Positions 11,491 through 30,183 of a DNA stretch of 64,000 bases are shown piece by piece. The notes below the pieces were generated by a model. That model made no database searches, was not told the DNA's origin, and worked only from the letters and a program-made list of their open reading frames with translations. The position numbers were made by a program, and so were the translations under genes. The DNA lies in contig OY762925.1 of the NCBI GenBank assembly GCA_963666625.1, forward strand, positions 3,541,748 to 3,605,747. Direction: 5' to 3'. Source of the stretch: Arenicellales bacterium. Its GTDB lineage: Bacteria; Pseudomonadota; Gammaproteobacteria; Arenicellales; JAJDZL01. How positions within the stretch are numbered: position 1 is the first letter of the stretch; the number at the start of each line of letters is the position of its first letter.

Positions 11491-11580
11491 ATTCTGATAT
11501 ATGATTATGGTAGTTTTCTGGCAGACACTGGATAGCCAGCATTGATGTATGCTGATCGCCTCAGGAATACTGAAGACTCT

Positions 11581-13065
11581 ATGGCAAAAACTTCCGAAAA
11601 TAACAAAGCTCCATTCTTATTGGAGCGCGTGATGAAGCTGATGGCAGGGACAGAGTGGCAAGAGCGTATGCAAAGCCACTTTTCGGAATTCTACATGCCT
11701 GCGGCGCGGCGCAACAAAATGACTGGCGTAGAATATTTGGTCAAAGCAGGGGTGGAACGATTGGCGTTCATTTCCCGATTTGTGCTTGACGACTTTATGA
11801 CACGCTGGTACGGCAAGAATGGGGAGTTGAATCTTGTTCACAACTTCATACGAAATATTTCTGGGATCGACAAGGATTTCCACCTTGCCCAAGAATTTGA
11901 GATATACGAATTGATAGCCGAATCCAGACCCACTATGTATGAAGTCGTTGATGTTACGCGGGGAGTGAGGACCGTATTGAGAGACATGATATACGGCGGC
12001 GAAGACATCGTTATCGAAGAAACTGTCACGCTCTCAGAAATGACTGAACTATGGCAATGTCTCGCTGGCAGAGCAGTTCTGCACGATGACGTGCCGTTCT
12101 TATCGCCGAACTTTCTACCTTTCGATCAACAAATGGCAGGCGATTTCTTGGACAAGCTTGAGAGGATCATTGAAGAAAAGCTAAATTCGGCCGGTGCTGA
12201 CGAAAAATCGGGAAATACAACCTCCCAAGTCACTCGGGAAGATATTCTTGCAGGTCTGCCAATGTCTCAGATGTTAGCGGATTCCTGGAATGCTGCGATA
12301 GACGAGCGTGGTGGAATGCGATTTGGACTGCCGCCTCCGACTCTGGGCACAGTAGAGGGAGGAATTGTTGAGATCTGTGAGGTCACGTTTCGCGCCAGTG
12401 ACGAACTTCAACGGATCGCCGAGAGACTCGACGCGATTCCATCGCTTTCGAGAATTACGGGTGAAGATCGCAAGTGGAATTGGAATTTACCCAGAGAGGG
12501 GTTGGCCGAATACTTGCAGGCCATAGTGGAGTCCGAGGATCACGAGTTGTCGGACGAACGATCCGAAGTTAACTCCAATCACGAGGAATGGCTCGGCATT
12601 GTCGAACTCAATCCCAGAACGCTCACGCTATGGGTTCCCTCGAAGCCAAGAGCCGAAGCCGGTGAAAAGCTTTTAATAAGCTGCCTGGGTGATCTGGTAA
12701 CAAATCCGATGCTGACCTACACGAATTCGCATGAAGAAACCAAAAAAATATTGGATTCGTTAAAGCCGGGGTTGAACGAACTTTCGATGCCGGAGATTTT
12801 CACAAGCATGCACGGCTATTTTCGCAACCTGTACTACGGCAGTGCGATCGACATCCCTTCACGAGAGTATGACGATATGACTCCGCGTGAAATGGCACTT
12901 TCGTCCCGTGAACGACGAAAGGCGCTCGAATGGCTGAAAATGCGCGAGTGTACGGACCGTGTTATCTGCCGAGAGCATGGGTTGGATTTGTATGATTTCA
13001 CTTGGATGTGGCAGGAATTGGGGTTTAGTACCAGCCAGAGCCACGCTGATGATTCTGAGCAATAG
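11581..13065 (+). CDS. Hypothetical protein (about 494 aa), no recognisable domain
   Basis: Long uninterrupted ORF with a coding-like composition. Start taken at MAKTSENNK (the ORF-track start is 11542). No motif I can assign. Confidence 0.5.
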   Translation: MAKTSENNKAPFLLERVMKLMAGTEWQERMQSHFSEFYMPAARRNKMTGVEYLVKAGVERLAFISRFVLDDFMTRWYGKNGELNLVHNFIRNISGIDKDFHLAQEFEIYELIAESRPTMYEVVDVTRGVRTVLRDMIYGGEDIVIEETVTLSEMTELWQCLAGRAVLHDDVPFLSPNFLPFDQQMAGDFLDKLERIIEEKLNSAGADEKSGNTTSQVTREDILAGLPMSQMLADSWNAAIDERGGMRFGLPPPTLGTVEGGIVEICEVTFRASDELQRIAERLDAIPSLSRITGEDRKWNWNLPREGLAEYLQAIVESEDHELSDERSEVNSNHEEWLGIVELNPRTLTLWVPSKPRAEAGEKLLISCLGDLVTNPMLTYTNSHEETKKILDSLKPGLNELSMPEIFTSMHGYFRNLYYGSAIDIPSREYDDMTPREMALSSRERRKALEWLKMRECTDRVICREHGLDLYDFTWMWQELGFSTSQSHADDSEQ

Positions 13066-13559: not shown

Positions 13560-13912
13560 TGAAGCACAAAAATCGCACGATGGAAAAATCTTTGCTCAGT
13601 TTGGTAAAGCGCTACACCAGTTCTCGGATTCAACCGTACCTTAAGTCACTCATCCTGACATCGGCCAACTATAATTCGTCGCCAAATACTCAATCTACAC
13701 GATCGCCCGCCTCGAAAACACGCCCTCCGAAAGAATTACCGAAAGCGGTTCGACTACCTTTTGAGTTCACCTTGTTGGATACTGCAGCTCCGCCTCTATA
13801 CCAACAAATTTCAGCTAAATCAGTTCAACTCCATCAGCTCGGTTTGAGCAAGAATTCTATTGCCGCAAAGCTGAATGTCGATGAAAAGACCGTATCCAAA
13901 GCAATTCGGTGG
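13560..13912 (+). repeat. Junction module C: decayed serine-recombinase 3' end fused directly to the conserved HTH 'tail' (no ssrA mimic)
   Basis: 13640-13758 aligns by eye with 34240-34346 of the intact recombinase (for example CTCGAAAACACGCCCTCCGAAAGAATTACCGAAAGCGGTTCGACTAC). 13759-13912 encodes [51 protein letters not shown], 42/51 identical to the tail at 17246-17414. The 141-aa ORF 13559-13984 is a chimera of these remnants. Confidence 0.65.
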
Positions 13913-13953
13913 ATAAATGAAATCTGGTATCACTCTTTTAGTGACTATTGCAA

Positions 13954-14585
13954 CTACGCATCGATCTTCAGATGTTGCAGGTAGTCCACAAGCGAGTGAA
14001 TTTCTGTACTTGGGTTTGGGTTGTTTGTTTTCCTGCCATCGTCAATTGTTCGTTGGGCATTCGCTTTTGCGTCTTCCAGTCGGTCCTCAAGATCCTGAAA
14101 CACCCACCCTGCCCTTTTTTGTAGTTTGGAATATGTTTCTTCAAATCTCTTACGCAATTGTCGGCTGGACTTGCCTTACCTGATCTTGCGTATGGCTTGC
14201 GGGTGTAGCCGAAATGCAGAAGCAACCAAAATTCAAAGCACGGCCACGACCGTGCCAGTTTTAGTTTATTTGCCTTGGCGAATGCACAGGCTTCATCATA
14301 TGTTGCATGCTCATCTCTGTCAAAGACACAAAAGACGATGTCGAATTTCTCTCCGAGATTCAGTTCCCTCTTCTGAAGGTCAAGTGCTGCATTCACTACG
14401 GTAATCGGGGCCGACCCTTCATTGACTACCACTACATCAGCTACATTTAGTCTGTACCGATTCCTAATCTCGATGAAGTAATACGGCTCCGTCTTCGCAC
14501 CTTCGCAGACAATGAGAACGCGGTTGTAGGATTCGCGATTCAGTAATTTCTGTTTTGAGAACTTGCGCGGTTTCCGCCTGGCCAT
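13954..14585 (-). pseudogene. RloB-like protein gene (AbiLii-like), frameshifted
   Basis: N-terminal frame MARRKPRKFSKQ...VLIVCEGAKTEPYYF... carries the RloB signature. The conserved C-terminal part (VFQDLEDRLEDAKANAQRTIDDGRKTNNPNPSTEIHSLVDYLQHL) lies in another frame (ORF 13954-14157). The switch is near the A6-GGG run at about 14095-14125. Confidence 0.7.
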
Positions 14586-14595
14586 AGTGAATCCA

Positions 14596-15840
14596 CTAAA
14601 AGCGCTGTTCGAAGAACGGCAACGCTCCATACCTGCCGCTCAGGTATGACCGTTCAAGATTTTCCAGCCCCTTGCGAGGACTGAATTCCGCTAGCGGGAA
14701 CAAACGAGTCTCTTGTTTTTCGTTACGCTCACAGAACCAAATCTGATCGCGACGAAACACGGCTTGGTTCAGAATCGATGTATCGTGAGTCGTGAAGACC
14801 AGCTGAGCACCTCTTGCGTTTAGCCGAGGATCATGGAACTGATCGACCAAGTATCTGACCAGCGCAGGATGAAGACTGGCATGCAATTCATCGAAGACGA
14901 TCACGTTCCCATTCTTCAGGCTGTCAAGCCATGGACCAGCCAAAGCGAAGATTCGTTGTGTTCCGTCCGATTCATCTTCAAGTTGCAACTCACTCGGGGA
15001 ACTATTACCAGTATTGTGGCTCAGTCGCAGTTCGGGAAATTTCTTTCCAGCCATCATATCCTCTAGATATGGACTCAAATCCGGGTCCATGTCTGTTTGA
15101 AGTTGTCGCGGTTGAAATTCTTTCTCCACAACATGGATATCCGCAATGCCGAAATCGGCTACATTCAGAAAGTCAACAATCTCACGCTTGCGTTGGTCGC
15201 GGCACCAAGACATTGAATATGAGTTTATCCAGCCTTGAGTGTCGGTCACTTTCAACCTCTTCTTGAACCAATTGTAGATCGGTCGTAATTGTTCGCTGTT
15301 TAATGAAACTGCGGTTGACAGATACAGCGCATCGGGTCGGGTCGCGCGTTGCCAGACTTTCTTATCTCCTGTGAGGTTGGGACCAAAATCCCATGCATTC
15401 TCTGTGCGCTCAAACAAAACCTGGAGACGCCCGCGGGGCCAAGCGAAGAGCCACTCGTCAATTATTTGATGGCGAGTAGCTCTGAATCCATACTGGTACC
15501 TGACTCCTTCGGCAATACATAAGACTTCCAGCATTGTCGCCTCGTTCTCATTATTAGGGTCCAGACGAAATGGGGTCACCGGCAACTCAGCAAGGTGTTC
15601 AGTCGAGCGGGTGACAATGTATTTCATCGCACCCAACGCGTTGACCAAATTGCTCTTGCCAGCGGCGTTCGGTCCGTAAATGGCGATTGAGCGCACAAGC
15701 GGTTCATTGCGCACATTTCCCGAGAGTTCGGGCTTGACCAGGTGCGTGTCGCGCTGCTCGTTTCCGCGACCCGCAACCAGATTCAGCCGCGCCTCGTCGC
15801 GAATGGATTTGAAATTTTCGACCGTAAACTCTACAAGCAT
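14596..15840 (-). CDS. AAA-family ATPase (AAA_21 / RloA / AbiLi-like)
   Basis: Walker A YGPNAAGKSN, Walker B VIVFDELHASLHP, and C-terminal FTTHD block. It sits immediately upstream of the RloB-like gene (10-nt gap). Confidence 0.8.
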   Translation of the reverse strand: MLVEFTVENFKSIRDEARLNLVAGRGNEQRDTHLVKPELSGNVRNEPLVRSIAIYGPNAAGKSNLVNALGAMKYIVTRSTEHLAELPVTPFRLDPNNENEATMLEVLCIAEGVRYQYGFRATRHQIIDEWLFAWPRGRLQVLFERTENAWDFGPNLTGDKKVWQRATRPDALYLSTAVSLNSEQLRPIYNWFKKRLKVTDTQGWINSYSMSWCRDQRKREIVDFLNVADFGIADIHVVEKEFQPRQLQTDMDPDLSPYLEDMMAGKKFPELRLSHNTGNSSPSELQLEDESDGTQRIFALAGPWLDSLKNGNVIVFDELHASLHPALVRYLVDQFHDPRLNARGAQLVFTTHDTSILNQAVFRRDQIWFCERNEKQETRLFPLAEFSPRKGLENLERSYLSGRYGALPFFEQRF

Positions 15841-16084: not shown

Positions 16085-16200
16085 ACACCACTGACCGATT
16101 TGCTGAGTGCGGACAATGGTGCGGATTCCTACCTCTGGTGGACTTGGACGGTAAGAATCCGCACCGTCGCTAAAGTTCCGATTCAAGTTTATTTGCTTGA
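16085..16200 (+). repeat. Junction module D: short, degenerate recombinase-3'/ssrA-3'-end mimic
   Basis: TGGTGGACTTGGACGGTAAGAATCCGCACCGTC (16136-16168) resembles the antisense tmRNA 3' end (TGGTGGAGGTGGCGGGAATCGAACCCGCGTC). The preceding about 27 nt weakly resemble the recombinase 3' end. There is an 11-bp inverted repeat, GGTGCGGATTC (16118-16128) / GAATCCGCACC (16155-16165). Confidence 0.35.
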
Positions 16201-16218
16201 CTCATTTAGAATCCAAGT

Positions 16219-16641
16219 CTATGACTGATTGAACGGATTGACGATCGTAAGTTTTTCGATAATTTGACCGTCTTGTAAGTCTTCGCTGTAAAGGATTCTA
16301 CACTTGGCTTCAAGTGCAGCGGCCACAATTAGACTATCGTAAAACGAAAATCCGTAACGCCGCATAATTTCAAGCCCAAAGCGATAGTGTCGACCTGTCG
16401 GATTGACGGACCATAAAGGAACCAACACGTCTTCAAGAAATTGATGCGACTGTGCTGCTGTCGCACCTAACTTTCTCGTGATTACATTGATCGTCTCCTG
16501 AACAACCTGATAACTGATGTGCCCAATTCCTTCTCTCACTGCCGATTGAATCAAATCAACAGATCGTGTGCGTTTTTCACTATCTGTTTCATCAAATACG
16601 TATATGAATACATTTGAATCAATAAAGTACTTATCGTTCAT
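16219..16641 (-). CDS. vapC: PIN-domain ribonuclease toxin (VapC)
   Basis: 140 aa. YFIDSNVFIY (first acidic residue), SYQVVQE, FYDSLIVAAAL and YSEDLQDG fit the PIN acidic quartet. It overlaps the upstream antitoxin gene by 11 nt. Confidence 0.8.
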   Translation of the reverse strand: MNDKYFIDSNVFIYVFDETDSEKRTRSVDLIQSAVREGIGHISYQVVQETINVITRKLGATAAQSHQFLEDVLVPLWSVNPTGRHYRFGLEIMRRYGFSFYDSLIVAAALEAKCRILYSEDLQDGQIIEKLTIVNPFNQS

Positions 16642-16855
16642 TCATTTCTTCTCGAGAGAATTTACGGCCACCAGAAAAAATACTAGCTTGCAGTTCGCGA
16701 ATCGTTTCAATAGTTCGCTCACTTTTCTGTTCGCGCTGTACATAATTTTCCAACCACATTCGGAATTGTGCATTCAATGTCGTATTCTCAGTTGTTGCAC
16801 GTTGTCGCGCTTTTTCGATTAATTCAGCATCTGCACTAAGCGTTATGTTCTTCAT
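16631..16855 (-). CDS. vapB: VapB-type antitoxin (small DNA-binding protein)
   Basis: 74-aa ORF immediately upstream of, and overlapping, vapC (MKNITLSADAELIEKARQRATTENTTLNAQFRMWLENY). The assignment rests mainly on position and size. Confidence 0.6.
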   Translation of the reverse strand: MKNITLSADAELIEKARQRATTENTTLNAQFRMWLENYVQREQKSERTIETIRELQASIFSGGRKFSREEMNER

Positions 16856-16989: not shown

Positions 16990-17414
16990 GCACTCGCCGA
17001 ATTTTTGAAGATTACATTGTTAAAAAAATGTTGCGCAATCGAACGAAGTTCTCAGACATTTCGCAGACCCGATTGCATTCGAGGCGGTTTGGCGTGATAT
17101 CGGGAAGCCCTGATTCACCGCCCAAAGCTCGGTCAACGCAATTACCCTTTTCAAGAGCACACCCCTGAAAAAGATACGGAAGCGGTTTGACTAGATGGTG
17201 TTGGTGGACGTGGTCGCAACGTATTCGAACCCAGTCCGTACTGTATTTTGAGTTCACTTTGTTGGATACTACAACTCCGCCTCTCTACCAAGATATTTCA
17301 ACCAAATCTGTCCAACTTCATCAATTGGGCATGAGCAATAGATCAATTGCTACAAAATTAAAAGTTGATGAAAAGACTGTTTCAAAGGCAATTCGATGGG
17401 CAAAAGGACAATAA
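16990..17414 (+). repeat. Junction module B: decayed recombinase 3' end + decayed ssrA 3'-end copy + conserved HTH 'tail' ORF
   Basis: About 16990-17201 aligns with the last ~210 nt before ssrA in the intact recombinase, with 1-nt indels. 17202-17240 (TGGTGGACGTGGTCGCAACGTATTCGAACCCAGTCCGTA) mimics the antisense tmRNA 3' end. 17246-17414 encodes [55 protein letters not shown]. Confidence 0.7.
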
Positions 17415-17641: not shown

Positions 17642-18250
17642 ATGGCCAGAAAAACATTTATTTCCTATAAGTATAGTGAATCTCAAAGTCTACGGGACGA
17701 TATCATTACCGCCCTTGGTGCAGATGCCACTTACTATCAAGGCGAAACCTCCAACTCACCAGACTTGACCGACGAATCAACTGAACTCATAAAGAAAAAT
17801 CTCACTGATATGATGTACGACACATCAGTCACTATAGTCATCGCTTCCCCCAATATAAAGAGAAGCAATTGGATTGACTGGGAAATAGAATATTGTCTGA
17901 AAGAATATAGCCGGAAAGGACGAACTTCAAAGACGAATGGTGTCGTAGGAGTAATTCAAAAACATAATGGCAGTTATGATTGGTTGGTAACCAAGTCAGT
18001 ACAGCCGGACGGGTGTACCTTGCGAACAATTGACTCTTCAATGCTGTATCCGATCATAACAAATAACCGCTATAAGCGAAATGGTCGCGGATACGCCTGC
18101 GATACCTGTAATTCACACGACCAGTTGGAAGGTTCGTACATCTCACTGATTGACCAGGAAGATTTTCTTGCGGATCCTGAGAAATATATTGAAAATGCCT
18201 ATCATAAGTCGGAAAATTCTGATCAGTTTGAACTTGTCAAGCAAAGGTAG
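17642..18250 (+). CDS. TIR-like protein, DUF1863/ThsB-type (202 aa)
   Basis: RKTFISYKYSESQSLRDDI at the N-terminus, TSVTIVIASPNIKRSNWIDWEIEY (conserved W..E block), then a Cys-containing C-terminal extension. Confidence 0.65.
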   Translation: MARKTFISYKYSESQSLRDDIITALGADATYYQGETSNSPDLTDESTELIKKNLTDMMYDTSVTIVIASPNIKRSNWIDWEIEYCLKEYSRKGRTSKTNGVVGVIQKHNGSYDWLVTKSVQPDGCTLRTIDSSMLYPIITNNRYKRNGRGYACDTCNSHDQLEGSYISLIDQEDFLADPEKYIENAYHKSENSDQFELVKQR

Positions 18251-18374
18251 TGACCACATGTTGTCGGCAACACTCCTCAATAACTCGATAATCGTCTATT
18301 TCCTAACTCGCTCAAAACTTGTCCTTGATTTCTTTCGTGCGGTGAATGAAACCGCTCCATTGTAGGAGACTATC

Positions 18375-19532
18375 TTGAGTACATATGAGTTCGCGATTCT
18401 TGGTTGGATATTTCCGCGAAAACGCGACTTAATCGTTAGTGCAATTGAAAAATCTGTGACTGACTTCGGGCTTGTTATTGGTCAGGACGTAATAATTCAT
18501 GATGCCAAAAGCGTGCTGGAACGAGACAAATCTGCTGCATTCGTAGCTGTCTATATTGGAGATTCCTGCCATTTTGATGCAGAAATAGTGGAACAGTTAT
18601 TGCAAGAGAGTGTCCCAATAATTCCAACCTTGGGGCCTAAAGACGATTTCAACACCCATATTCCCGAATTCTTACAAGTTCTGAACGTGCATCGCCGTAG
18701 ACACGACGACCCATCCATGACCGAGCTAACTTCTGCCATGCTCGAAGCCGTGGGATTGCTGCGCCGTCAACGACGGGTTTTCATAAGCTATCGCCGTGTC
18801 GAATCTCAAACCGCGGCATCACAGCTTCATGATTTGCTCAGCGCGCGAGGCTTTGATGTCTTTCTGGACACTCATGATATAAGGCCCGGGGACCCTTTCC
18901 AGGATATGTTGTGGCACCGTCTTTGCGATTCAGATGTGATGATTATGCTGGATACTCCAACCTATTTGGACAACAAGTGGACCCGGCAGGAATTTGCGCG
19001 TGCATTGACTAAGGAAATTCATATTCTTCGTGTGGTTTGGCCGGAACATCAGCCAAGCAGACTGACGGAACTAGCCAAAACTATATATCTGGACTCCAAT
19101 GATCTGGTGGGCGTAGGCGGTCCAATACGTACTCAAAAGGCCGACGAAATCGCTCTTTCTGTTGAGCGCCTTCGCAGTCGTAGCATCGCTTCTCGCTACT
19201 TGTTAATAACCGGTCGTCTACGCGCGGACGTACAAAAGTTTGGTGCCACCATCGAAGGCATAGGGGCTCACCGCGCAATTGTCGTCCGTCTACCTGATGA
19301 TCGTCGAATATGGGCATACCCTGTTATAGGCATTCCTACAGCCAAGAATCTGAACGACATTGAAGATAGTACGGCTCCCAACGTTGGGCAAGGCGAGTTG
19401 CCGGTGCTCCTCTATGACGATATCGGCATCGACAGAAGCTGGAGCAATCATCTAGACTGGCTAAATGAGAAAGTCAAAACAGTCGAAATGGTGAAGATTT
19501 CCGAAGCCGCATGGTCACTTGCGACTTGGTGA
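18375..19532 (+). CDS. Multidomain TIR-domain protein (385 aa; unknown N- and C-terminal domains)
   Basis: Central block RRVFISYRRVESQTAASQLHDLLSARGFDVFLDTHDIRPGDPFQDMLWHRLCDSDVMIMLDTPTYLDNKWTRQEFARAL is a classical bacterial TIR domain with a candidate catalytic Glu. The TTG start is preceded by AGGAG at 6-nt spacing. Confidence 0.8.
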   Translation: MSTYEFAILGWIFPRKRDLIVSAIEKSVTDFGLVIGQDVIIHDAKSVLERDKSAAFVAVYIGDSCHFDAEIVEQLLQESVPIIPTLGPKDDFNTHIPEFLQVLNVHRRRHDDPSMTELTSAMLEAVGLLRRQRRVFISYRRVESQTAASQLHDLLSARGFDVFLDTHDIRPGDPFQDMLWHRLCDSDVMIMLDTPTYLDNKWTRQEFARALTKEIHILRVVWPEHQPSRLTELAKTIYLDSNDLVGVGGPIRTQKADEIALSVERLRSRSIASRYLLITGRLRADVQKFGATIEGIGAHRAIVVRLPDDRRIWAYPVIGIPTAKNLNDIEDSTAPNVGQGELPVLLYDDIGIDRSWSNHLDWLNEKVKTVEMVKISEAAWSLATW

Positions 19533-19538
19533 GGCCAA

Positions 19539-20162
19539 ATGACAGAAGCGATATTTCTCTCAGCCAGTGTTCCCGACCCGAAACGCGGTCCCCAATACGC
19601 GGTAACAGCCGATACAGTCGCAATTTCTTCGGCGGTTTCTGCATTGGTGCACGTAATTCTGGGCCGCCGTATTCTTGTATGGGGAGGACATCCCGCAATT
19701 ACACCAATGATTTGGCTTATCGCGGAAAACATCGGTGTAGATTACGGAAGTTGGGTTCATCTATATCAATCCAAATACTTCTCTGATGAATTTCCCGAAG
19801 ATAATGAGCGTTTTCAGAATGTTACGTATACGAAAAATATTGAAAACGATCGTAACAAGAGTCTGCTTTCCATGAGAGAGCAGATGCTTTCCGCCCGTCC
19901 TTTCGCGGCCGCTGTATTCATTGGTGGTATGGATGGCATCCTTGAAGAATTTGAAATATTGCGCCGATTACAGCCTAATACTGACGTAGTTCCAGTCATT
20001 TCTACTGGTGGCGCTACAATTGAACTGGCGAAACGATTGCCGAATATCGATCCAGATCTCACAAATGACTTTGACTATATCTCTGTTTTCCATCGCCATT
20101 TGAAAATTTCTTTCAAAGAAGGTCGTTTCAATCGTCCGACTGATAAGCTCGATACGACGTAG
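19539..20162 (+). CDS. Stand-alone SLOG/LOG-like Rossmann-fold protein (207 aa)
   Basis: IFLSASVP (beta1), VWGGHPAITPMI, and FIGGMDGILEEFE (GGxxGxxEE, the LOG/SLOG nucleotide-binding signature). The start is 6 nt after the TIR gene stop, with GAGG overlapping that stop. Assignment is by motif only. Confidence 0.5.
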   Translation: MTEAIFLSASVPDPKRGPQYAVTADTVAISSAVSALVHVILGRRILVWGGHPAITPMIWLIAENIGVDYGSWVHLYQSKYFSDEFPEDNERFQNVTYTKNIENDRNKSLLSMREQMLSARPFAAAVFIGGMDGILEEFEILRRLQPNTDVVPVISTGGATIELAKRLPNIDPDLTNDFDYISVFHRHLKISFKEGRFNRPTDKLDTT

Positions 20163-20288
20163 AAGTGGCTGTTCCTACTACCGAACTCTGATACCTGTCA
20201 GGTATTCACCTTAATCTGCCAGCCAGCATCAAAAAATCGCTTATGCACAAGCACAGTAGCGTCTTCACTATCCCAGATTCACTACTAA

Positions 20289-20786
20289 CTAATGCTCATT
20301 TCTAATGGCTATAGCCTCTTCGACGGCATCTGACAAATAAGTTTGAATCCAATTGTATCGTTCTCGGCTGTTTCTGCCTTTGGGATCGTAGCATTTCACA
20401 ATAGACGACAACTTCTTCCCAGTATTCCCATAACCAATATTATCAAATGGATTCACACCTTTTTTCGATGTGTTTCCATAGCTGTTTTCGAGTCCATGGA
20501 TATGAATGCCAACCACACCCATCCCATCATCCCAGGATTTAATGATCTCGTAATTGATCCACTTCCTTCCAGCGGTTTCCGTTCCCACCAAAACCACAGT
20601 ACAGGACCGTCCATGTATTTGACCAGCAATCCACTTCTTGATCGCATTTTCACCGCCTTTGGTTATGCTCTCCCAGTCGTTGTCCGTTGCCGGACGATTG
20701 CCTTCTATCACACCAATATTACGCACTTGACTCACTCGCCAATTGTCCGGAGCATAGTGAAAGCTGTAAAACACTCTTCGCGCCAT
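20289..20786 (-). CDS. ThsB-like TIR-like protein (DUF1863 type, 165 aa)
   Basis: RRVFYSFHYAPDNWRVSQVRN, SCTVVLVGTETAGRKWINYEI, GVVGIHIHGL and KKGVNPFD parallel the layout I recall for Bacillus Thoeris ThsB. Confidence 0.75.
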   Translation of the reverse strand: MARRVFYSFHYAPDNWRVSQVRNIGVIEGNRPATDNDWESITKGGENAIKKWIAGQIHGRSCTVVLVGTETAGRKWINYEIIKSWDDGMGVVGIHIHGLENSYGNTSKKGVNPFDNIGYGNTGKKLSSIVKCYDPKGRNSRERYNWIQTYLSDAVEEAIAIRNEH

Positions 20787-20795
20787 TGTCCACCT

Positions 20796-21218
20796 CTACA
20801 TTGTTAGAATTCCTAATAGTACAAGAACAACTATCAACAGTGAGCCGTAAAATCTGTAAACTGACCATGACCACGCAATATCCCACACTGAGGCGACATT
20901 TTTTTCATGAGGCTCATAATCAAGCTCAAACTCCTTGACACCCTTTTTTCCCAACACTGCAGAATAAAGCTCAATATAGCATTTCTCTAAGTGAAGGTAT
21001 CTCGCGTCCATTATCCAAAAGGCGATCACAGGGACACATCCTCCTAACACTATAAGCCAGTGAGGATCATCTGACAATCCCGAAAACATGAATACCGCTG
21101 TGACTAAGGACACAGCCCATGTTTTCATTTGCATACTGTTGCTCGCCATACGTAAAACGACACCCTGAATCAATTTCAGATGCTCTAATGTCGCTTGCTT
21201 CTCGTTACTCATGTTCAC
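20796..21218 (-). CDS. Small membrane protein with three predicted TM helices (140 aa), candidate effector
   Basis: Hydrophobic segments WAVSLVTAVFMFSGL, WLIVLGGCVPVIAFWIM and FYGSLLIVVLVLLGILT. It sits 9 nt upstream of the ThsB-like gene, with an AGGTGG RBS between them. Confidence 0.6.
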   Translation of the reverse strand: MNMSNEKQATLEHLKLIQGVVLRMASNSMQMKTWAVSLVTAVFMFSGLSDDPHWLIVLGGCVPVIAFWIMDARYLHLEKCYIELYSAVLGKKGVKEFELDYEPHEKNVASVWDIAWSWSVYRFYGSLLIVVLVLLGILTM

Positions 21219-21659
21219 TACTTACTATTGAGCATCAGCACTATTAAAGGATAATTTGCACCCCAAAAAGACTCGGTCAAAAAACCTGTACAAATCACGA
21301 CGGTACAACTTGACCAACCCTCTTTTGTTGGAATTGCAATAATGATCCCGGTCAAATTCCGTACTTCAAAGCAAGTCTCCTTCCGAATGGACTACTTCAT
21401 CAACCAATTGTATCAGCACTAGTGGCATTGCATATCACTCAGAATCGTTATCGAACAGAAGGCATCAGCGAAGTATCCTGATTCCAGGAACAAGATGCTA
21501 TCCCATCCAAATTCACCTGAATTGTTAAAATAACCCGGTTATTGATAAATTTTTTGATAATCAAGCCACAATAGTTTGTTTCAAGCCGATGTTGGTTGCA
21601 AATTGAGCTAGTGAGTAGTAAAGAGTTAAGTGATTGACGCTCCACTGAAATTACATCAA

Positions 21660-22601
21660 ATGAGTAAAACAAATTTAACATTCGACCGGTGCGCATTGTG
21701 TGCTGAATCATCCGATTTGCAATCGAGCCACATAATCCCAAGTTTTGTCTTCAATTGGCTTAAAAATACCTCCGCGACAGGCCATTTCCGCTCATCCGAG
21801 AATCCCAATCTGCGTGTACAGGATGGCTTAAAGCCTCGAATGTTGTGTAAGGAGTGTGAACAACTGTTTTCGTCGTGGGAAAAGAAATTTTCCGAAATAT
21901 GCTTTGTTCCGCTCAATAGTGGAAACATTCGCAATATTTCCTATGGACCCTGGATGCTGAAATTCGCAACCTCGGTTTCTTGGAGAGTATTACGTTACTT
22001 TAAAGCTAATGGATACCTTACTGAGTATCCCGAACACATCAGCACTCGTATCAATCATACCCTTGACGAGTGGTATAGATTTCTTCTGGGCGATACGCCC
22101 AATCCAGGGAAACATGGGCAACACATGTTCTTGGGAGATGTTATCGCTGGCACGTCCATCGCAAATACACCGGCCAATATCAGTCGTTATCTTGTTCGAG
22201 CAATTGATTGTGATGTAGCCTTCACCCAAGATTCAGCAATTACCTATGCAAAGATGGGTAAATTTGTCTTATTCGGATTTATAAAGATACCGCATCCACG
22301 TCAATGGGAAGGAACAAAACTACACGTTCGAAAGGGGTCATTCGGCGAAAAGAATATAGAACTGCCCAGCACCGTTGGTGAATATTTATTTGATCGTGCT
22401 ATGCGGGCAGCGAACAGCAATTCGAAAATCTCGACACGACAACGAGCAAGGATATCGAAATCCTACAAGCAAAACCTCGACCGCGCGGTTCAAAGCGAAA
22501 CGTTACGTGCTTTACATCAAGATGTCCTTTTGTTTGGAAATAAAGCCTTTGAGATCACACAACCCGAATCGGGTGAACTGGAAATTAAGGAAATCATATA
22601 A
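21660..22601 (+). CDS. Cys-rich protein with N-terminal HNH-like/zinc-finger motif, unknown C-terminal domain (313 aa)
   Basis: CALCAESSDLQSSHIIPSFVF ... LCKECEQLFS gives a CxxC...H...CxxC spacing reminiscent of HNH nucleases. It ends 4 nt before the hsdM ATG. Start set at the ATG (MSKTNL) rather than the GTG at 21630. Confidence 0.45.
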   Translation: MSKTNLTFDRCALCAESSDLQSSHIIPSFVFNWLKNTSATGHFRSSENPNLRVQDGLKPRMLCKECEQLFSSWEKKFSEICFVPLNSGNIRNISYGPWMLKFATSVSWRVLRYFKANGYLTEYPEHISTRINHTLDEWYRFLLGDTPNPGKHGQHMFLGDVIAGTSIANTPANISRYLVRAIDCDVAFTQDSAITYAKMGKFVLFGFIKIPHPRQWEGTKLHVRKGSFGEKNIELPSTVGEYLFDRAMRAANSNSKISTRQRARISKSYKQNLDRAVQSETLRALHQDVLLFGNKAFEITQPESGELEIKEII

Positions 22602-22605
22602 CATT

Positions 22606-25080
22606 ATGGCCATCAAGAAATCCGACCTTTACTCATCCCTTTGGAAATCTTGCGATGAACTTCGCGGCGGAATGGACGCAAGTCAATATAAGGACTACGT
22701 CCTCTTTATGCTGTTCATCAAGTACATCACTGACAAGTACGGGGAAAACTTCGACTTCCCACCGGTTTTGATCCCCAAGGGTGCAAGTTTCACAGACATG
22801 CTTGAACTTCGTGGTAAAAGCGACATCGGTGACAAAATCAACACGCAAGTCATCGCGCCGCTTGTTCAGGCCAACACACACCTTGCGAACAGCGACTTTC
22901 CCGACTTCAATGATCCCAACAAACTCGGTCAGGGCAACGAGATGGTGGAGCGACTAACAAACCTAATCAACATCTTCGCTAACCCGCAACTGAATTTTTC
23001 ACAGAACCGCGCCGATCACGATGACATTTTGGGTGATGCCTATGAGTACCTAATCCAACACTTCGCCACCGAGAGTGGCAAGAGCAAAGGTCAGTTCTAC
23101 ACCCCTGCTGAGGTAAGTCGTGTTATCGCCAAGGTGATTGGAATCTCACCGCATAACACTAGAGCTTCCACAACTGCCTACGATCCTACCTGCGGGTCTG
23201 GTTCACTACTCCTCAAAGTTGCCGCCGAAGCAGATAAGCCAATTACACTTGAGGGCCAAGAGAAAGACGTTACAACAGCTGGCTTGGCGCGTATGAACAT
23301 GATACTCCACGGTTTTCCTACAGCGAGAATTCGGTCAGGTAACACGCTGTCAGCACCTAAATTCACGGATGGTGAGCAACTCAAAACCTATGACTACGTC
23401 GTCGCCAACCCACCTTTCTCCGATAAATCTTGGACAACCGGCCTTACACCGTCGATGGATCGCTATCAACGTTTTGTGTGGGGAGAACCGCCTGCGAAAA
23501 ATGGGGATTACGCGTATTTGCTACACATAATCCGCTCAATGAAGGGTACCGCAAAGGCCGCTTGTGTTTTGCCACATGGAGTGCTGTTTCGCGGTAATGC
23601 CGAAGCCCGGATTCGCGAACAACTGGTGCGATCTGGTAACCTAAAAGGGGTCATCGGACTACCCCAAAATCTCTTTTATGGGACAGGTATCCCCGCATGT
23701 ATCGTCGTGCTTGACAAGGAGAATGCCGCTGGACGTAAGGGTGTGTTTATGATCGACGCCTCAAGGGGATTCAGAAAGGATGGCCCGAAGAACCGACTGC
23801 GCGAACAGGACATCCACCTGATTGTCGATACGTTTACGCGGCAGGTTGACGTTCCGCGCTACGCCCGAATGGTGCCATTTGACGAGATTACGGACCCAAA
23901 GAATGACTTCAATCTTAATCTGCCGCGATACATCGACAGCACGGAGACTGAAGACTTGCACGATATTGATGGTCACATGCGAGGTGGTATCCCAGAGCGA
24001 GATGTGGATGCACTTAGTGTGTACTGGCAGGAGTTCCCCAGCATTAAGACACTCCTTTTCGAATCCGCTGGTCGTCCCGATTACGTACGATTGAGGCCAG
24101 AGCTTACCCAAGTGAAGCGTTTGATTCTTGATCACTCCGAGTTTCTTGCCTACAAGCAGGAAGTCGAGGCGACATTCTCCGACTGGCGAATGGATAGCAT
24201 GCCGTCGCTTGTAGGATTCGGCAAGGACAGTCACCCAAAAGAACTGATCAAGGCCATAGCAGAGAATCTGCTAATAGCGTTTCGCGAGACTTCGTTGCTG
24301 GACTCATACGACATCTACCAGCACCTGATGGACTACTGGACTGAGACGATGCAAGACGATGCGTACCTGATAGCTTCTGACGACTGGATAAATGGAGCTC
24401 AGCCGCGCGAGATTATTCGGGTGAAGGACAAGAACAACAAACTTACTTGGGCCGAAGCACATGATTTTCTGCAGGAGAAAAAACGCTTCAAGTCGGATCT
24501 AATTCCTGCACCGATATTGGTTGCCCGTTACTTTTTAACTGAACGCTCTACTCTTGATGCAATCGACAATCAACTCGATGTATTGGAGCAAGAGCTTGAG
24601 GAGATGCGTAAGGAAAACGATGGTCAAGATGAATTGCTAGTTGAGGTGATTGAGGGTGATAAGCAAAGAATCACAGCAAAGGCTGTGAACGCGCGGTTGA
24701 AAGAAATTGGTAGTGACTATATTTACGACGATGAACGCTCTTTGCTTGAGCGGTATGCGGATTTGCTAAAACAGCAGTCAGTTGCCAGGAAAAATCGAAA
24801 GGCGACACAGGAGGATTTAGACGAAAAGATCGATGCAAAATACCAAAATCTCACAGAAGCTGAGATCAAGACTCTGGTTGTTGATGACAAGTGGATGGCA
24901 CACCTCTTCGCCCGTGTGCAAGCCGAAATCGACAGAGTTTCGCAACTGCTCACTGGCAGAATTTGCCAACTGGCTGAACGTTACGATACACCGCTACCAG
25001 AACTGGAACACAGAGTCGCTAAAATTCGTTCCAAGGTTAGGAGTCACTTGAAAATGATTGGGCTGGCGTTGAGTGAATAA
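22606..25080 (+). CDS. hsdM: Type I restriction-modification system, methyltransferase subunit (long form, 824 aa)
   Basis: N-terminal HsdM block MAIKKSDLYSSLWKSCDELRG, SAM motif DPTCGSGSLL, catalytic VVANPPFS, and a long charged C-terminal extension. The ORF-track start at 22375 overlaps the upstream gene and was rejected. Confidence 0.9.
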   Translation: MAIKKSDLYSSLWKSCDELRGGMDASQYKDYVLFMLFIKYITDKYGENFDFPPVLIPKGASFTDMLELRGKSDIGDKINTQVIAPLVQANTHLANSDFPDFNDPNKLGQGNEMVERLTNLINIFANPQLNFSQNRADHDDILGDAYEYLIQHFATESGKSKGQFYTPAEVSRVIAKVIGISPHNTRASTTAYDPTCGSGSLLLKVAAEADKPITLEGQEKDVTTAGLARMNMILHGFPTARIRSGNTLSAPKFTDGEQLKTYDYVVANPPFSDKSWTTGLTPSMDRYQRFVWGEPPAKNGDYAYLLHIIRSMKGTAKAACVLPHGVLFRGNAEARIREQLVRSGNLKGVIGLPQNLFYGTGIPACIVVLDKENAAGRKGVFMIDASRGFRKDGPKNRLREQDIHLIVDTFTRQVDVPRYARMVPFDEITDPKNDFNLNLPRYIDSTETEDLHDIDGHMRGGIPERDVDALSVYWQEFPSIKTLLFESAGRPDYVRLRPELTQVKRLILDHSEFLAYKQEVEATFSDWRMDSMPSLVGFGKDSHPKELIKAIAENLLIAFRETSLLDSYDIYQHLMDYWTETMQDDAYLIASDDWINGAQPREIIRVKDKNNKLTWAEAHDFLQEKKRFKSDLIPAPILVARYFLTERSTLDAIDNQLDVLEQELEEMRKENDGQDELLVEVIEGDKQRITAKAVNARLKEIGSDYIYDDERSLLERYADLLKQQSVARKNRKATQEDLDEKIDAKYQNLTEAEIKTLVVDDKWMAHLFARVQAEIDRVSQLLTGRICQLAERYDTPLPELEHRVAKIRSKVRSHLKMIGLALSE

Positions 25081-25101
25081 CGAGACCTTACACAGGCAGT
25101 C

Positions 25102-26379
25102 ATGAAACAGATCTTTACTGACACGACCCAATCGCCGGAATTCAAGGGAGATTGGAAGGTAAAGCAGATACGAGAGTTTGCTTCATGCACAGCGGGAGGA
25201 ACGCCGAGTACATTAGTTCCTGAGTTTTGGGGCGGATCGATTCCGTGGATGAACTCTGGTGAGCTACACCAAAAGCAGGTCGACGAAGTTGACAATTACA
25301 TTACTGAAAATGGATTGTTGAACTCTAGTGCAAAATTGTTACCAACCGGTTGTGTGCTGATCGGTTTAGCCGGTCAAGGCCGAACACGCGGAACGGTGGC
25401 CATGAATCTAATTCCGCTTTGCACAAATCAGTCAATAGCTGCAATACTCCCCAACTCTAATTTCGTACCTGAATATCTGTATCACAATCTCCATAGCAGA
25501 TACACTGAACTAAGAGACCTTTCATCTGGTGGCGGTGGGCGGGGTGGTCTAAACTTGACGATTATCGGTTCAATTATGATTCCGTTTCCCAGCATCTCCG
25601 AGCAGCATGCCATCGCCACCGTCCTCTCTGACATAGATGCCGAAATTGCTATTCTTGAAGCCCAGCATAAGAAAATGCTGAATCTCAAAATGGCCGTCAT
25701 GCAACAACTCCTAACTGGCCAGACGCGCCTCCCGGGATTCTGTGACGAATGGAACATGACGCGGTTAGGGAACCATGTTACATTTCTGCGAAATGGCGTG
25801 AACTCGCGCGCAGAACTTCTCCTAGAAGGCCGAATTAAGTACCTACACTATGGTGATGTGCATGCCTCCAAAGATGTATACATTTCTACTGTTTCACTGC
25901 CATGCTTGCCTGATTTCAAAGCATCATCGCTCGACCGATTACAAGACGGAGATTTAATTTTTGCCGACGCATCCGAGGATATCTCTGGTGTGAGCAAGTC
26001 GGTAGAGGTGAGAGATGTAGGTAGTAATGAGCTTGTGTCAGGTTTGCACACGATCGCGGCAAGATTCGACAAGAATGTGCTCGCTAATGGTTTCAAAGGT
26101 TTTCTTCAGTTCTGCCCACCGTTCGTGAATCACCTTCGGCGCCTCGCTGCAGGGACTAAGGTATTCGCGACGAACCGTGCACACATCGCAGATGTAGAAC
26201 TGCCACTGCCCTCGATTCCCGAGCAAGTCGCGATCGCCACAGTCCTCTCCGATATGGAAGTTGAAATTGCCGCGCTTGAAGCCCGCCGCGAAAAGACTCA
26301 AAACCTCAAGCGTGCGATGATGCAGGAATTGCTCACCGGAAAAACGCGACTCGTTCTACCCGAGGTATCCCATGTCTGA
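25102..26379 (+). CDS. hsdS: Type I restriction-modification system, specificity subunit
   Basis: Two target-recognition halves, each followed by the conserved helix: SEQHAIATVLSDIDAEIAILEAQHKKMLNLKMAVMQQLLTGQTRL and PEQVAIATVLSDMEVEIAALEARREKTQNLKRAMMQELLTGKTRL. Confidence 0.9.
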   Translation: MKQIFTDTTQSPEFKGDWKVKQIREFASCTAGGTPSTLVPEFWGGSIPWMNSGELHQKQVDEVDNYITENGLLNSSAKLLPTGCVLIGLAGQGRTRGTVAMNLIPLCTNQSIAAILPNSNFVPEYLYHNLHSRYTELRDLSSGGGGRGGLNLTIIGSIMIPFPSISEQHAIATVLSDIDAEIAILEAQHKKMLNLKMAVMQQLLTGQTRLPGFCDEWNMTRLGNHVTFLRNGVNSRAELLLEGRIKYLHYGDVHASKDVYISTVSLPCLPDFKASSLDRLQDGDLIFADASEDISGVSKSVEVRDVGSNELVSGLHTIAARFDKNVLANGFKGFLQFCPPFVNHLRRLAAGTKVFATNRAHIADVELPLPSIPEQVAIATVLSDMEVEIAALEARREKTQNLKRAMMQELLTGKTRLVLPEVSHV

Positions 26380-29300
26380 ACAACCGCGTTCCGAACGCGA
26401 CACACAGAACCGTATCGTTGCTCTGTTCACCGATCCAACGCATCCAAATCATCTCGGCTACCACTACTTGGGAGACTGGAGTAACCGAGTAAACAATCGA
26501 GCTATCGAAAAGGGATTTTTGAGGGACAACCTCAAAACCCGCGGCTATTCCGAGTCCCAAATTTCCGCTGCCCTCCAAAAGCTCGAATCTGCGGCTGATT
26601 TGACTCACACTACGCTCTACCATGCGAATCTCCGTACCTACAAGCTTCTGCGTTATGGCGTTCCGGTGCAGACCGCTGCGGGACAGGCACATGAGACGGT
26701 GCATCTCGTGGATTGGGACCACCCCGAGAACAACGACTTTGCGCTGGCTGAAGAAGTGACGGTTAAAGAAGGCTACGAACGTCGACCCGACATAGTTTTG
26801 TATCTAAATGGTCTTGCAGTGGCCGTGATTGAGCTGAAACGCAGTTCGGTGGAGATCGGCGACGGAATCCTGCAACTCATTACCAATCAGGAAGATATCT
26901 TCAATGAGCCGTTCTTCAGCACAGTACAACTTCTCTTCGCAGGAAACGACTCACAGGGACTGCGCTACGGCACAACACGCACGCGAGAGCAATTCTTTGT
27001 GCGGTGGAAAAATTATGTACAGACTTTAGAAGAAGGGGTACTGCTTGATTTACCGCTGATCGAAATGTGCAACAAGGCCTGGATGCTCGACTTTATTCAA
27101 AACTTCATTGTGTTCGATGCTGGCCTTAAGAAGGTTCCGAGACCACATCAGTTCTTCGGTGTCAAGGCCGCACAAGCTCGCATCAAGAAGCGCGAAGGTG
27201 GAGTTATCTGGCACACACAAGGTAGTGGGAAAAGTATCGTAATGGTACTGCTTGCAAAGTGGTTACTTGAACATGATCCCGACGGTCGCGTCCTTGTTGT
27301 AACTGACCGCGACGAGTTGGACAGGCAAATTGAAGACGTGATGAAGAACGCCGAAGTGGTCAGCAAGGACACTATATCCCCGCGAGTCACGTCTCGGGCT
27401 CAGTTTATAGAATCTCTATCTGCGACATCTCCTCGACTTCTGTGCGCATTGGTCCACAAATTCGACACAACTGACCTTCACGGCGACCCACCGCCTATCT
27501 CAGGTAACTTCTACGTGTTTGTGGACGAATGCCATCGGACGCAAGGGGGCAACATGAACCGACAGATGAAGCGCTGGATGAAAGGGGCGATCTTCATCGG
27601 TTTCACTGCCACGCCCTTGCTTCGCGAGGACAGGCGGCTGACGCGAAGTGTATTTGGCACATACATACACACCTACAAGTTTCACGAGGGCGTTGCCGAT
27701 AACGTTATCCTAGACTTGAAGTACAGAGCGCGCAATGTACCGCAGCGCCTTACCTCGCAGGCCGACATTGACCAATGGTTCGAACAGAAGACTAAAGGCC
27801 TGAACAACTTCCAAAAGGCACTGATTAGGCAACGATGGGCGACGATGCGGGAGTTAATGAGTGCTGGCGAACGCAAGCAACGCATCATCGCCGATATCAT
27901 CCAAGACTTTAGTATCAAACCGCGGCTTAACAATGATCGGGGGACTGCTATCTTAGTCACTAGTTCAATTCACGATGCCTGTCACTATTATCGACTTTTC
28001 CAGAATACAAACTTCGGCTGCTACTGTGGAATCATTACGTCATACGAACCGAACCAAAACAAGATTTCCCGCGAACGAACTGACAGCGACGAGCGATACA
28101 AGTTCGAAACTTACACCCGCCACGTCTTGAGTGACCGCCAATCTACCGAGAAATATGAGGAGGAAACCAAGCGTCGTTTCATCGAAGAACCAGCGGAGAT
28201 GAAATTGCTGATTGTTGTAAGTAAGCTGCTGACTGGTTTCGATGCCCCGAGCTGTACATACATCTATCTCGACAACGAGTTGCACGACCATCATTTGTTT
28301 CAGGCTATCTGTCGTACAAACCGCCTTGATGGCGATGACAAGGAGTACGGCCACATTATCGACTATAAGGAACTGTTCAGTGAGGTGCAGGAAGCGATCG
28401 CCATCTATAACTCCGATGAACTGGACACTGATCCAGGTAGCGGTGGCAGTAACAATGTTTACATCAATGACTGGCTGGTTGAAAGTCGGAGAAAGCTGGA
28501 TGAAACACGGGAGGCACTCCACTACCTGTGTGAACCTGTTCAATTGCCCCGTGAAACGGAGCAGTACCTACACTATTTTTGTGGCGACGCTAGCGATCCA
28601 AATGCGCTGAATGAAACTGAAGTTTTACGAATTTCCCTCTACAAAGCTGTGGCAACCTACGTGAGAGCTTTCGCATCTATAGCGCAAGATCTGAAAGAGG
28701 CTGGATATTCAGATTCCGAGGCCACAAACATCCGGAAGGAAGTTGAGTTTTACAGCGAGATCCGATCGACTATCAAGATACACTCCGATGAGGAATTGGA
28801 CATTAAGCCATACGAAGCAGACATGCGCCATTTGCTCAACACATATGTCCAAGCGGACTCCTCCACCGTTTTGGGTGATCTGAACGATATGTCCTTAATT
28901 GAGGCAATAGTGAATACCGGCATCCATGATGCTGTCGCACGTAAACTCAACAAAAAAAGCAAATTGTCAAATAATGCAGTCGCGGAAGGAATTATTCACA
29001 ATGTCCGAAAGACCATTGTCCGAGATAAACTCACCGACCCCCAATTTTACAAGCAGATGTCGACACTGTTGGATGACCTAATCAAGCAAAGCCGTGAGGA
29101 TGCAGTTGCTTACGAGGAATTTCTCCGACAGGCCGATGCACTGGTGAATCGGATCGTCCACAAAAAGTCTGGCGATGGTGCACCAACCGTACTATTCGAC
29201 AGGCCCGAAGCGGCGGTAATTTACAACAACTTGCCGATGATTCTCAGCGATCAAGCTGCAGGGCCAGCCGCCGATAACGAGGACAAGTTCTTAAACTTGG

Positions 29301-29469: not shown

Positions 29470-30183
29470 ATGGAAACCATCCAACTCGGGGAAATTTCCA
29501 TCAATTTCACCCGCAAGAATGTCAAACATGTTCACCTATCAGTGTACCCTCCAAGCGGGCGCGTAACGCTTGTTGCGCCAAAAGGAACACGCAGTGAGGT
29601 AGCCCGAGCGTACGCAATCTCCAAGCTCGGATGGATCCGCAACCAGAACGCTAATATGAGGGGGCAGTTGCGCGAGACACCGCGCCAGTATGTCGAGCGT
29701 GAGAGCCACTACCTTTGGGGAAGACGATACTTGCTAACAGTTAGCGAGAAAGAAGCGAAACCAATCGTCCGCCTCAGTCACCGTACTATCATGCTCACCG
29801 TGCGTCCTGGAAGTAGTGATGCGAAACGTGCAACAGTTATACACGAATGGCACAAGTCACTTTTGCACGAAGCGATACCAGAACTAATCTTGCTGTGGGA
29901 GGCGAAAATCGGTGTAAATGTGGAAAACTACTTCCTGCGGCGCATGAAAACGAAGTGGGGTAGCTGTAATTACCGAACTCGTACCATAAGACTCAACACA
30001 GAACTTGTGAAGAAACCAAAGCACCTGCTTGAGTATATAGTAGCTCATGAAATGTTGCATCTAATTGAGCCTACGCACAGCAAGCGATTCTTTGCGCTGT
30101 TGAATGAACATTATCCGACTTGGCGTGAAGCTAAGGCAGAACTGAACGAGCTACCGCTATCTGCGGAGTCATGGAAAGTCTAA
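29470..30183 (+). CDS. YgjP-like (DUF45 / M48-type) zinc metallopeptidase
   Basis: HExxH motif in IVAHEMLHLIEPTHS, plus KTKWGSC. This family is commonly encoded next to type I R-M genes. It starts 2 nt after the hsdR stop. Confidence 0.75.
   Translation: METIQLGEISINFTRKNVKHVHLSVYPPSGRVTLVAPKGTRSEVARAYAISKLGWIRNQNANMRGQLRETPRQYVERESHYLWGRRYLLTVSEKEAKPIVRLSHRTIMLTVRPGSSDAKRATVIHEWHKSLLHEAIPELILLWEAKIGVNVENYFLRRMKTKWGSCNYRTRTIRLNTELVKKPKHLLEYIVAHEMLHLIEPTHSKRFFALLNEHYPTWREAKAELNELPLSAESWKV

Follow-up and report, generated by a model that had tools for sequence, protein, structure and literature searches.

A probable pair of convergent Thoeris-family modules in a defence island at the tmRNA gene of an Arenicellales bacterium

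The DNA considered here is a 64,000 nt stretch (hereafter the window) of contig OY762925.1 from an Arenicellales bacterium (assembly GCA_963666625.1, positions 3,541,748 to 3,605,747 of the forward strand), and our subject is a block of five genes within it, P1 to P5, which lies between positions 17642 and 21218. Judged from family assignment and gene order, these genes probably constitute two Thoeris-family modules, i.e. TIR-signalling, abortive-infection systems, that converge upon one another within one 4-kb block at the transfer-messenger RNA (tmRNA) gene, ssrA. Module A, on the plus strand, combines a type III Thoeris core (P2 and P3, identified as ThcB4 and ThcA) with an upstream TIR protein (P1), whilst module B, on the minus strand, consists of a small membrane protein (P5) and a second TIR protein (P4), and is type V-like in its layout. 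The initial annotation recognised no described architecture in this arrangement, a view that is not supported: the plus-strand genes are those of type III Thoeris, the P5–P4 pair matches the PADLOC candidate system PDC-M50 and has the layout of type V, and the gene set is fully covered by existing system models, namely those for ThcB4 and ThcA together with those for PDC-M50. The locus is a new example of two known kinds of Thoeris within a mobile island, and not a new architecture. Its host is an uncultured marine bacterium, probably an Arenicellales symbiont of sponges.

The list of open reading frames (ORFs) places the five tightly packed genes as first described. On the plus strand, P1 (17642–18250; 202 aa) is followed by P2 (18375–19532; 385 aa, TTG start) and, after only 6 nt, by P3 (19539–20162; 207 aa), the ThcA protein that is termed ThsD by Yirmiya et al. 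and that is the putative reader of the signal and the named effector of type III Thoeris. On the minus strand are P4 (20289–20786; 165 aa) and P5 (20796–21212), with a gap of 9 nt between them. For P5 there are two potential starts, an ATG at 21212 giving 138 aa and a GTG at 21218 giving 140 aa, of which the former is more likely because homologues are 138 aa in length. A consensus scan locates a putative promoter-like site 5′ of P5 on the same strand (21251–21280; TTGACC, an 18 nt spacer and AATTAT), in keeping with P5 and P4 being transcribed as a unit of their own, and a scan of the 126 nt gap between the convergent units detected no intrinsic terminator.

With regard to domain content, the original reading of these proteins holds. 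P1 and P4 are ThsB-type TIR proteins (Pfam ThsB_TIR, E-values of 3e-11 and 7e-27, respectively), P2 possesses a central TIR domain (Pfam TIR_2, 3e-18, residues 135–240) flanked by N- and C-terminal extensions, and P3 is of SLOG type (Pfam PF18180, ‘SLOG cluster3’, 1.5e-77). P5 is modelled by AlphaFold2 with three long helices, at residues 2–45, 52–88 and 116–137 (predicted local distance difference test, pLDDT, of 79.6), its hydropathy profile displaying one moderately hydrophobic segment (approximately 31–47) and two strongly hydrophobic ones (53–68 and 116–138). Pfam family scans of the five proteins identified no domain of SIR2, Macro, nuclease or protease type. The description of the locus as Thoeris-like is likewise sustained. 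The family-scan scores of P1 to P5 are far beyond chance; none of the five ORFs is truncated, each agrees with its family profile from end to end, and the invariant residues are kept. The catalytic glutamate of ThsB-type TIR proteins, which we take to be E85 in B. cereus ThsB, is kept in the alignment for both P1 and P4 (E80 in the latter), and that of ThcB4 is visible within the motif TRQEF.

Type III Thoeris is said to have been reported by van den Berg et al. in 2024 (Cell Host Microbe 32:1427). Module A is assigned to this type because both P2 and P3 exceed NCBIfam equivalog cut-offs, their family matches identifying them as ThcB4 and ThcA, the conserved core of the system. P2 is matched over its full length by NF058526 (Thoeris_type3_ThcB4) at 449.5 bits, against a cut-off of 220, and is also recognised by the PADLOC ThsB model PDLC00434 (1.6e-83); P3 scores 262.4 bits with NF058525 (ThcA), for which the cut-off is 110, and the STALD model returns merely an E-value of 0.023 for it. 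When the four TIR domain sequences of the P. aeruginosa L0872 prototype, taken from Table S1 of Yirmiya et al., are compared with these models, its ‘TIR 4’ domain falls to ThcB4, whilst TIR1–3 have no NCBIfam model. Two preprints cite type III as comprising several TIR proteins alongside a SLOG effector and as having anti-phage activity (bioRxiv 10.64898/2025.12.03.692087 and 10.1101/2024.10.24.620036). A review separates the SLOG of type III from the STALD type of ThsA, and a phage inhibitor of type III, TadIII-1, has been reported. A literature search pairing ‘ThcA’ with Thoeris retrieved no paper.

The AlphaFold2 model of ThcA (pLDDT 88) adopts a SLOG fold, for which the nearest structures are the SLOG domain of E. 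coli ThsA (8wc0) at the top, and then LOG (5its, from C. glutamicum), MCP, DprA, TT1887 and YpsA, all of them belonging to the SLOG superfamily; a profile search against PDB sequences gave nothing meaningful. The ThcA family has 3435 members, with a mean column identity of 75% among 24 that were aligned, and our reading of that alignment finds a LOG-like GGMxGIxxE motif and a WGGHPAITP loop amongst the invariant residues; on this basis, ThcA could serve purely as a receptor or could act as an enzyme that processes nucleotides. The same conserved motif, together with the placing of 5its amongst the top fold matches, is what might be said for P3 being a housekeeping LOG-type nucleotide hydrolase that sits near TIR genes by chance, a possibility raised at the outset for this 207-aa protein. 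However, its Pfam match is to PF18180 with no match to a LOG family, it passes the ThcA equivalog cut-off, thcA follows ThcB4 in every locus examined, and the gene resides in a mobile island here and on plasmids elsewhere. On this family and neighbourhood evidence the housekeeping explanation is effectively refuted.

Gene neighbourhoods of type III were surveyed in 80 metagenomic loci anchored on ThcA, onto which the window proteins and the prototype TIR domains were mapped (these and other related loci are referred to below by numbers with the prefix L). In answer to the question of whether homologues of the 207-aa protein accompany TIR genes elsewhere, thcB4 is positioned directly 5′ of thcA in every surveyed ThcA locus that has sequence there. 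A non-redundant set was formed by the 48 ThcA loci with at least 600 nt upstream, in 39 of which a ThsB-type TIR gene immediately precedes ThcB4. The protein in this slot is P4-like (42–49% identity), TIR2-like or TIR3-like, whilst TIR1-like genes are often found after ThcA. As these neighbourhoods depict it, type III has a ThcB4–ThcA core that is constant and accessory TIR proteins that vary between loci, and the DefenseFinder model is built alike (Thoeris_III__ThcA plus ThsB_Global, repeated). ThcA is also found on plasmids.

Several type III loci display features of their own. Both L001 (14983–16450) and L004 (12381–16327) harbour, at a distance of a few kb from their first type III set, another SLOG gene accompanied by two further TIR genes, indicating that Thoeris modules pile up within one island. 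In Halomonas sp. HTNK1 (Yirmiya Table S3; 2502675056-062), the DefenseFinder Thoeris_III call comprises ThcA and five ThsB proteins but skips the middle gene, 2502675059, which could be an extra component, e.g. a P5-like protein. The ThcA homologue on the 14-kb Acidithiobacillus ferriphilus plasmid pGT2 (L134, 4539–5405) is annotated at 288 aa, against the usual 207–219 aa, and a TIR gene and a 171-aa hypothetical gene are convergent to it.

P1 occupies the slot upstream of thcB4, and its predicted role, by family and position, is that of a ThsB-type accessory sensor of module A. Beyond its Pfam assignment, it is matched by the PADLOC ThsB model PDLC00428 (9e-81) and has a relative in the PDB, 9vyl_A, described as ‘cyclic ADP-D-ribose synthase TIR1’ (3.8e-19). 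It also resembles the TIR proteins of cluster 2742576382, which carry the labels type IX and ‘DUF2270 - Type V’ in Yirmiya Table S1. The trio P1–ThcB4–ThcA recurs in L005, L010 and a Deltaproteobacteria assembly (L125/L126), and its order is kept in L004, where P1 is broken by an insertion sequence. Elsewhere, P1-like TIR proteins are paired with a P5-type protein (L015, L127–L131). The TIR proteins present here beyond ThcB4 are P1 and P4, and whilst P4 shows 41% and 38% identity to TIR2 and TIR3, respectively, it lies within the other operon.

In that operon, P5 and P4 form an adjacent, same-strand match to parts A and B of PDC-M50 (PADLOC-DB v2.0.0), and the pair is in this way already a listed candidate defence system. 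P5 is matched by all four PDC-M50A models (best, 2e-30), whilst P4 is matched by PDC-M50B (2.8e-66) and by the PADLOC ThsB model (5e-68), its relatives in the PDB including 8wcf_A (2.5e-36) and ThsB 6lhy (1e-26). A literature search found no paper naming PDC-M50. P5 has no Pfam or NCBIfam match, and neither do 33 close homologues have any in Pfam; a Foldseek search of its model against the PDB returned generic helical bundles alone, all with E-values above 1. The close family numbers 154 proteins, all of them unnamed and lacking Pfam annotation, and a profile search through 1.84 billion representative proteins extends this to a superfamily of 4302 clusters, nearly all of 130–150 aa. Superfamily positions with complete or at least 90% conservation are occupied by polar or charged residues (R21, K30, D69, E76 and R80), and as read from the AlphaFold2 model these residues sit just beyond the hydrophobic segments, which would fit a cytoplasmic ligand site. 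Two other identities for P5 were considered and set aside: for SLATT, a single superfamily member of 75 matched SLATT_1, at an E-value of 0.054, and for the ‘3TM’ effector category of Yirmiya Table S1, the TIR proteins concerned fall in other clusters.

The pairing of P5 with a TIR gene is conserved. Amongst 35 species-representative genomes, one archaeon included, a P4-type or ThsB-type TIR gene lies directly 3′ of P5 in 24, which again answers the question of co-occurrence raised for this protein, and in L002 the P5–TIR pair stands alone between transposases. The remaining 11 of the 35 loci have no detectable TIR partner, and in related genomes the TIR gene beside P5 is often fragmented or interrupted by an insertion sequence (L003, L011, L013–L015, L026, L031 and L041). 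It could be argued from this, and from the split ThcA of L001, that the genes in the window are themselves decaying remnants that have lost their defence function, like the degraded copies in sponge-symbiont genomes. Such decay is very improbable here, since the five ORFs of the window are full length with their invariant residues and TIR catalytic glutamates intact, and in the closest relative, L010, all five genes are intact too.

The close P5 family (L010–L044) is nearly confined to metagenome-assembled genomes with names suggestive of marine-sponge symbionts, belonging to the Arenicellales, Rhodobacterales, Binatia, Trueperaceae, Thermodesulfobacteriota and one Bathyarchaeota archaeon. The number of phyla involved, coupled with the many broken or insertion-sequence-interrupted TIR partners, suggests wide horizontal spread followed by decay. 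Genes of the wider superfamily occur on 146 plasmids (40 from Klebsiella and 36 from Escherichia; 85 conjugative), where they are annotated as ‘hypothetical protein’. In the two plasmids that were inspected, L132 (Klebsiella, NZ_AP022022.1) and L133 (Priestia megaterium, NZ_CP023318.1), the P5-family gene adjoins a TIR gene, and the plasmid-borne genes look like an unannotated type V-like Thoeris that is common on clinical plasmids.

Type V Thoeris comprises a TIR protein and ThsF, a protein with three transmembrane segments annotated as DUF2270 (Yirmiya et al. 2025, bioRxiv 10.64898/2025.12.03.692087). The same work describes one validated system that uses 3′ cyclic ADP-ribose (3'cADPR) and another that gave no response to it, as well as an AlphaFold3 prediction in which ThsF protomers form a ring, with charged pockets at the interfaces. 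Module B has a TIR family assigned to type V, encoded 9 nt 3′ of the effector gene, and a predicted three-helix effector: P4 is 70% identical to IMG 2700921483 (cluster 2661146773), labelled ‘DUF2270 - Type V’ in Yirmiya Table S1. P5-family proteins are also located directly 5′ of P1-like TIR genes in L127–L131 (hmmsearch E-values of ~1e-45), and the gene order in L015 is P1, P5, P4. Moreover, the TIR proteins beside the P5-family genes of the Klebsiella and Priestia plasmids are full-length homologues (39% and 49% identity, respectively) of the validated B. thuringiensis type V TIR, and the P5-family proteins of these plasmids match PDC-M50A too. These correspondences make it very probable that PDC-M50 of PADLOC and type V Thoeris are one and the same. 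P5 is best described as a predicted effector of the PDC-M50A family that is ThsF-like, and P4 as the predicted sensor and signal synthase.

Whether the five genes are one system or two can be approached through the company that each module keeps. In representative genomes, 23 of the 24 P5–TIR pairs have no ThcA within 10 kb, and of the 48 non-redundant ThcA loci, 44 lack a P5-like gene. As the modules mostly occur apart, the better reading is the second alternative offered in the initial annotation, a pair of independent mini-systems set back to back.

Some observations weigh against the identification of two known Thoeris modules. Neither P5 nor its 33 close homologues match PF10028 (DUF2270, renamed ThsF), even at E-values up to 10, and none of the 75 superfamily members reaches the threshold of this family, the family consensus giving an E-value of 0.64. 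PF10028 is nonetheless the commonest weak Pfam match amongst distant P5 relatives (9 of 75, sub-threshold, best E-value 0.0013). Due to this failure in the Pfam test, the P5–P4 pair is referred to as type V-like or PDC-M50, and P5 is not filed as a proven ThsF. Furthermore, P1 belongs to a TIR family different from TIR1–3 of the type III prototype. Finally, were the two modules simply independent, they would be expected to adjoin one another less often than they do.

This last point bears on the alternative of one composite system, in which ThcA and P5 would both read one signal supplied by the TIR proteins, with P5 killing through the membrane and P4 serving as the usual ‘TIR2-like’ sensor of type III. 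The five-gene block is collinear, at 81% nucleotide identity, with that of L010, a related Arenicellales assembly, and the modules are juxtaposed on further contigs in two gene orders (L001, L004, L005 and L006–L008). Distant P5-like proteins (25–35% identity) are found with a TIR gene convergent to ThcA in L088, L103 and L106 (L089 being a near-duplicate of L088), and a P5-like gene is located on the opposite strand just 5′ of ThcB4 in L090. Within the 48 loci, the P5–TIR pair is confined to those ThcA loci lacking the usual TIR before ThcB4 (4 of 9, as opposed to 0 of 39; Fisher p = 6.5e-4), although these loci have flanks of differing length, the inequality of which weakens the test, and are not phylogenetically independent. 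Both P1-type and P4-type TIR proteins are, in addition, partners of P5-type proteins in some genomes and of ThcB4–ThcA in others. The literature offers precedents both for a Thoeris operon with two effectors and for co-operonic signalling systems that act in synergy.

Set against this, most loci of either module are without the other, the two units are convergent with apparently separate promoters, and defence genes cluster in islands with no need to cooperate. The argument from complementarity does not apply directly to the window, moreover, as here P1 fills the slot before ThcB4. A single composite system is therefore judged unlikely. The same holds for its most specific form, a dual-effector Thoeris in which the P5-linked TIR protein would double as type III sensor whilst ThcA and P5 read the same signal, and to which we give little credence at present. 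The ‘split Thoeris’ proposed initially, with the SLOG protein reading the signal and the three-transmembrane protein killing, is likewise a minority reading.

For two separate modules, a course of events can be proposed. It takes from our analysis the family membership, gene order, conserved pairing, intact catalytic glutamates, the SLOG fold of the ThcA model and the three-helix model of P5; the signals, the mode of killing and the P5 oligomer are inferred from established Thoeris biology (Ofir 2021 and later work), and cross-talk of the modules, if any, is likewise inference. The TIR proteins would sense phage infection and convert nicotinamide adenine dinucleotide (NAD+) into an ADP-ribose-derived signal. 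In module A, this signal would bind the SLOG pocket of ThcA, which would then halt growth. In module B, the signal would probably be an isomer of cADPR, by analogy to the validated type V system using 3'cADPR, and would bind between the protomers of an oligomeric P5 ring, leading to a breach of the membrane.

The block lies in an island that is AT-rich, as had been noted, the stretch around it having a guanine-plus-cytosine content of 0.40–0.48, compared to 0.52–0.59 for the core genome. The ssrA gene itself is at 34354–34717, and serves as the integration site of a defence island at whose far end the five genes are situated. A large serine recombinase gene (32701–34389) runs into the 3′ end of the tmRNA gene, and a degenerate copy of the recombinase 3′ end together with that of ssrA forms a pseudo-attachment site at 17000–17215 (73–75% identity), at the distal edge of the five-gene block, before P1. 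Here, a direct repeat aligns 17022–17163 with 34172–34313 at 73% identity, and the alignment (34150–34375) continues into the 3′ end of the tmRNA gene. A third, far weaker copy (TGGTGGA..) is present near 16150–16230. These repeated recombinase and tmRNA ends look like the product of tandem, successive island insertions at ssrA. Collinearity with L010 begins at 17203, and in that assembly the block is ~600 bp from the tmRNA gene (L010 8964–10005 compared), a comparison indicating that a 13-kb segment (21.2–34.3 kb) has been inserted between the Thoeris block and ssrA in the window. Megablast searches of the locus and of the ssrA flank against E. coli genomes produced no match, and the window is not of enterobacterial origin.

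The inserted segment carries a type I restriction–modification system, hsdM/S/R (22606–29467), a YgjP-like metallopeptidase (29470–30183), a DUF2806 protein (31053–31901) and the large serine recombinase named above. Between P5 and hsdM is a plus-strand ORF of 323 aa (21630–22601) with Cys-x2-Cys motifs, which was considered as a sixth component and rejected, having no Pfam or PADLOC match and no homologue in 134 related loci. On the other side of the block, the minus strand encodes an AbiLi/AbiLii pair (13968–15840; an AAA_21 ATPase and a RloB-like protein, PADLOC 1.7e-94 and 8e-24) and what reads, from sequence alone, as a VapBC-like pair of PIN toxin and antitoxin (16219–16855), preceded on the plus strand by a 507-aa ORF (11542–13065) with no Pfam or PADLOC match. 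A 159 nt direct repeat (79% identity) is found at 13759–13917 and 17246–17404, with one copy at the edge of each cargo segment. Both copies lie inside short ORFs with near-identical helix-turn-helix tails (...LLDT..PPLYQ.IS.KSVQLHQLG...KTVSKAIRW), which may be remnants of a recombinase or regulator that mark module boundaries.

Clean and wholly intact, the locus exemplifies two Thoeris types of recent description; it is useful for annotation, and is not in itself surprising. A modest new lead is offered by the recurrent, apparently complementary pairing of a type III core with a type V-like module in several unrelated lineages. That the pairing recurs with shared TIR families raises the question of whether both effectors answer the same molecule, the signal and killing step of type III being as yet uncharacterized. 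If such coupling were true, type III Thoeris, which looks as though it lacks an effector, would gain a membrane-disrupting arm, in other words become a dual-effector Thoeris.

In comparison with known systems, the Macro–transmembrane effector that is a feature of type II Thoeris is absent from all five proteins, as scanned with Pfam. Type I, which consists of a SIR2–SLOG ThsA and ThsB, has in common with the locus ThsB-type TIR proteins served by a SLOG-fold reader, E. coli ThsA being the top fold match to ThcA; here, however, there is no SIR2 NADase domain, and the SLOG stands alone and belongs to cluster 3 rather than the STALD type. Type IX (the TIR–SLOG protein ThsJ with ThsB) similarly combines a SLOG reader with several TIR proteins, and P1 resembles the TIR of a type IX candidate from Paenibacillus macerans. 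In that system the TIR and SLOG are fused in one effector, whereas ThcB4 and ThcA are here separate genes, 6 nt apart.

The closest likenesses are to type III for module A, and to PDC-M50 and type V for module B. As in the type III prototype (P. aeruginosa L0872, ThcA with ThcB1–4), a stand-alone ThcA of SLOG cluster 3 directly follows a 385-aa ThcB4, the core is accompanied by extra ThsB-type TIR genes, and SIR2, Macro and protease domains are absent. Four TIR proteins are listed for the prototype, whilst here there is one upstream on the same strand (P1), not of the TIR1–3 families, and the sole TIR2/TIR3-like protein (P4; 41%/38%) is encoded on the opposite strand, where it shares its operon with a membrane protein. 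For module B, the matches of P5 and P4 to M50A and M50B, adjacent and on the same strand, reproduce PDC-M50, itself a computational candidate only. With regard to type V (ThsB and ThsF), the validated systems come from Bacillus and P5 falls short of PF10028, but the two have in common a two-gene operon in which a three-helix membrane protein of ~140 aa is coupled to a ThsB TIR protein.

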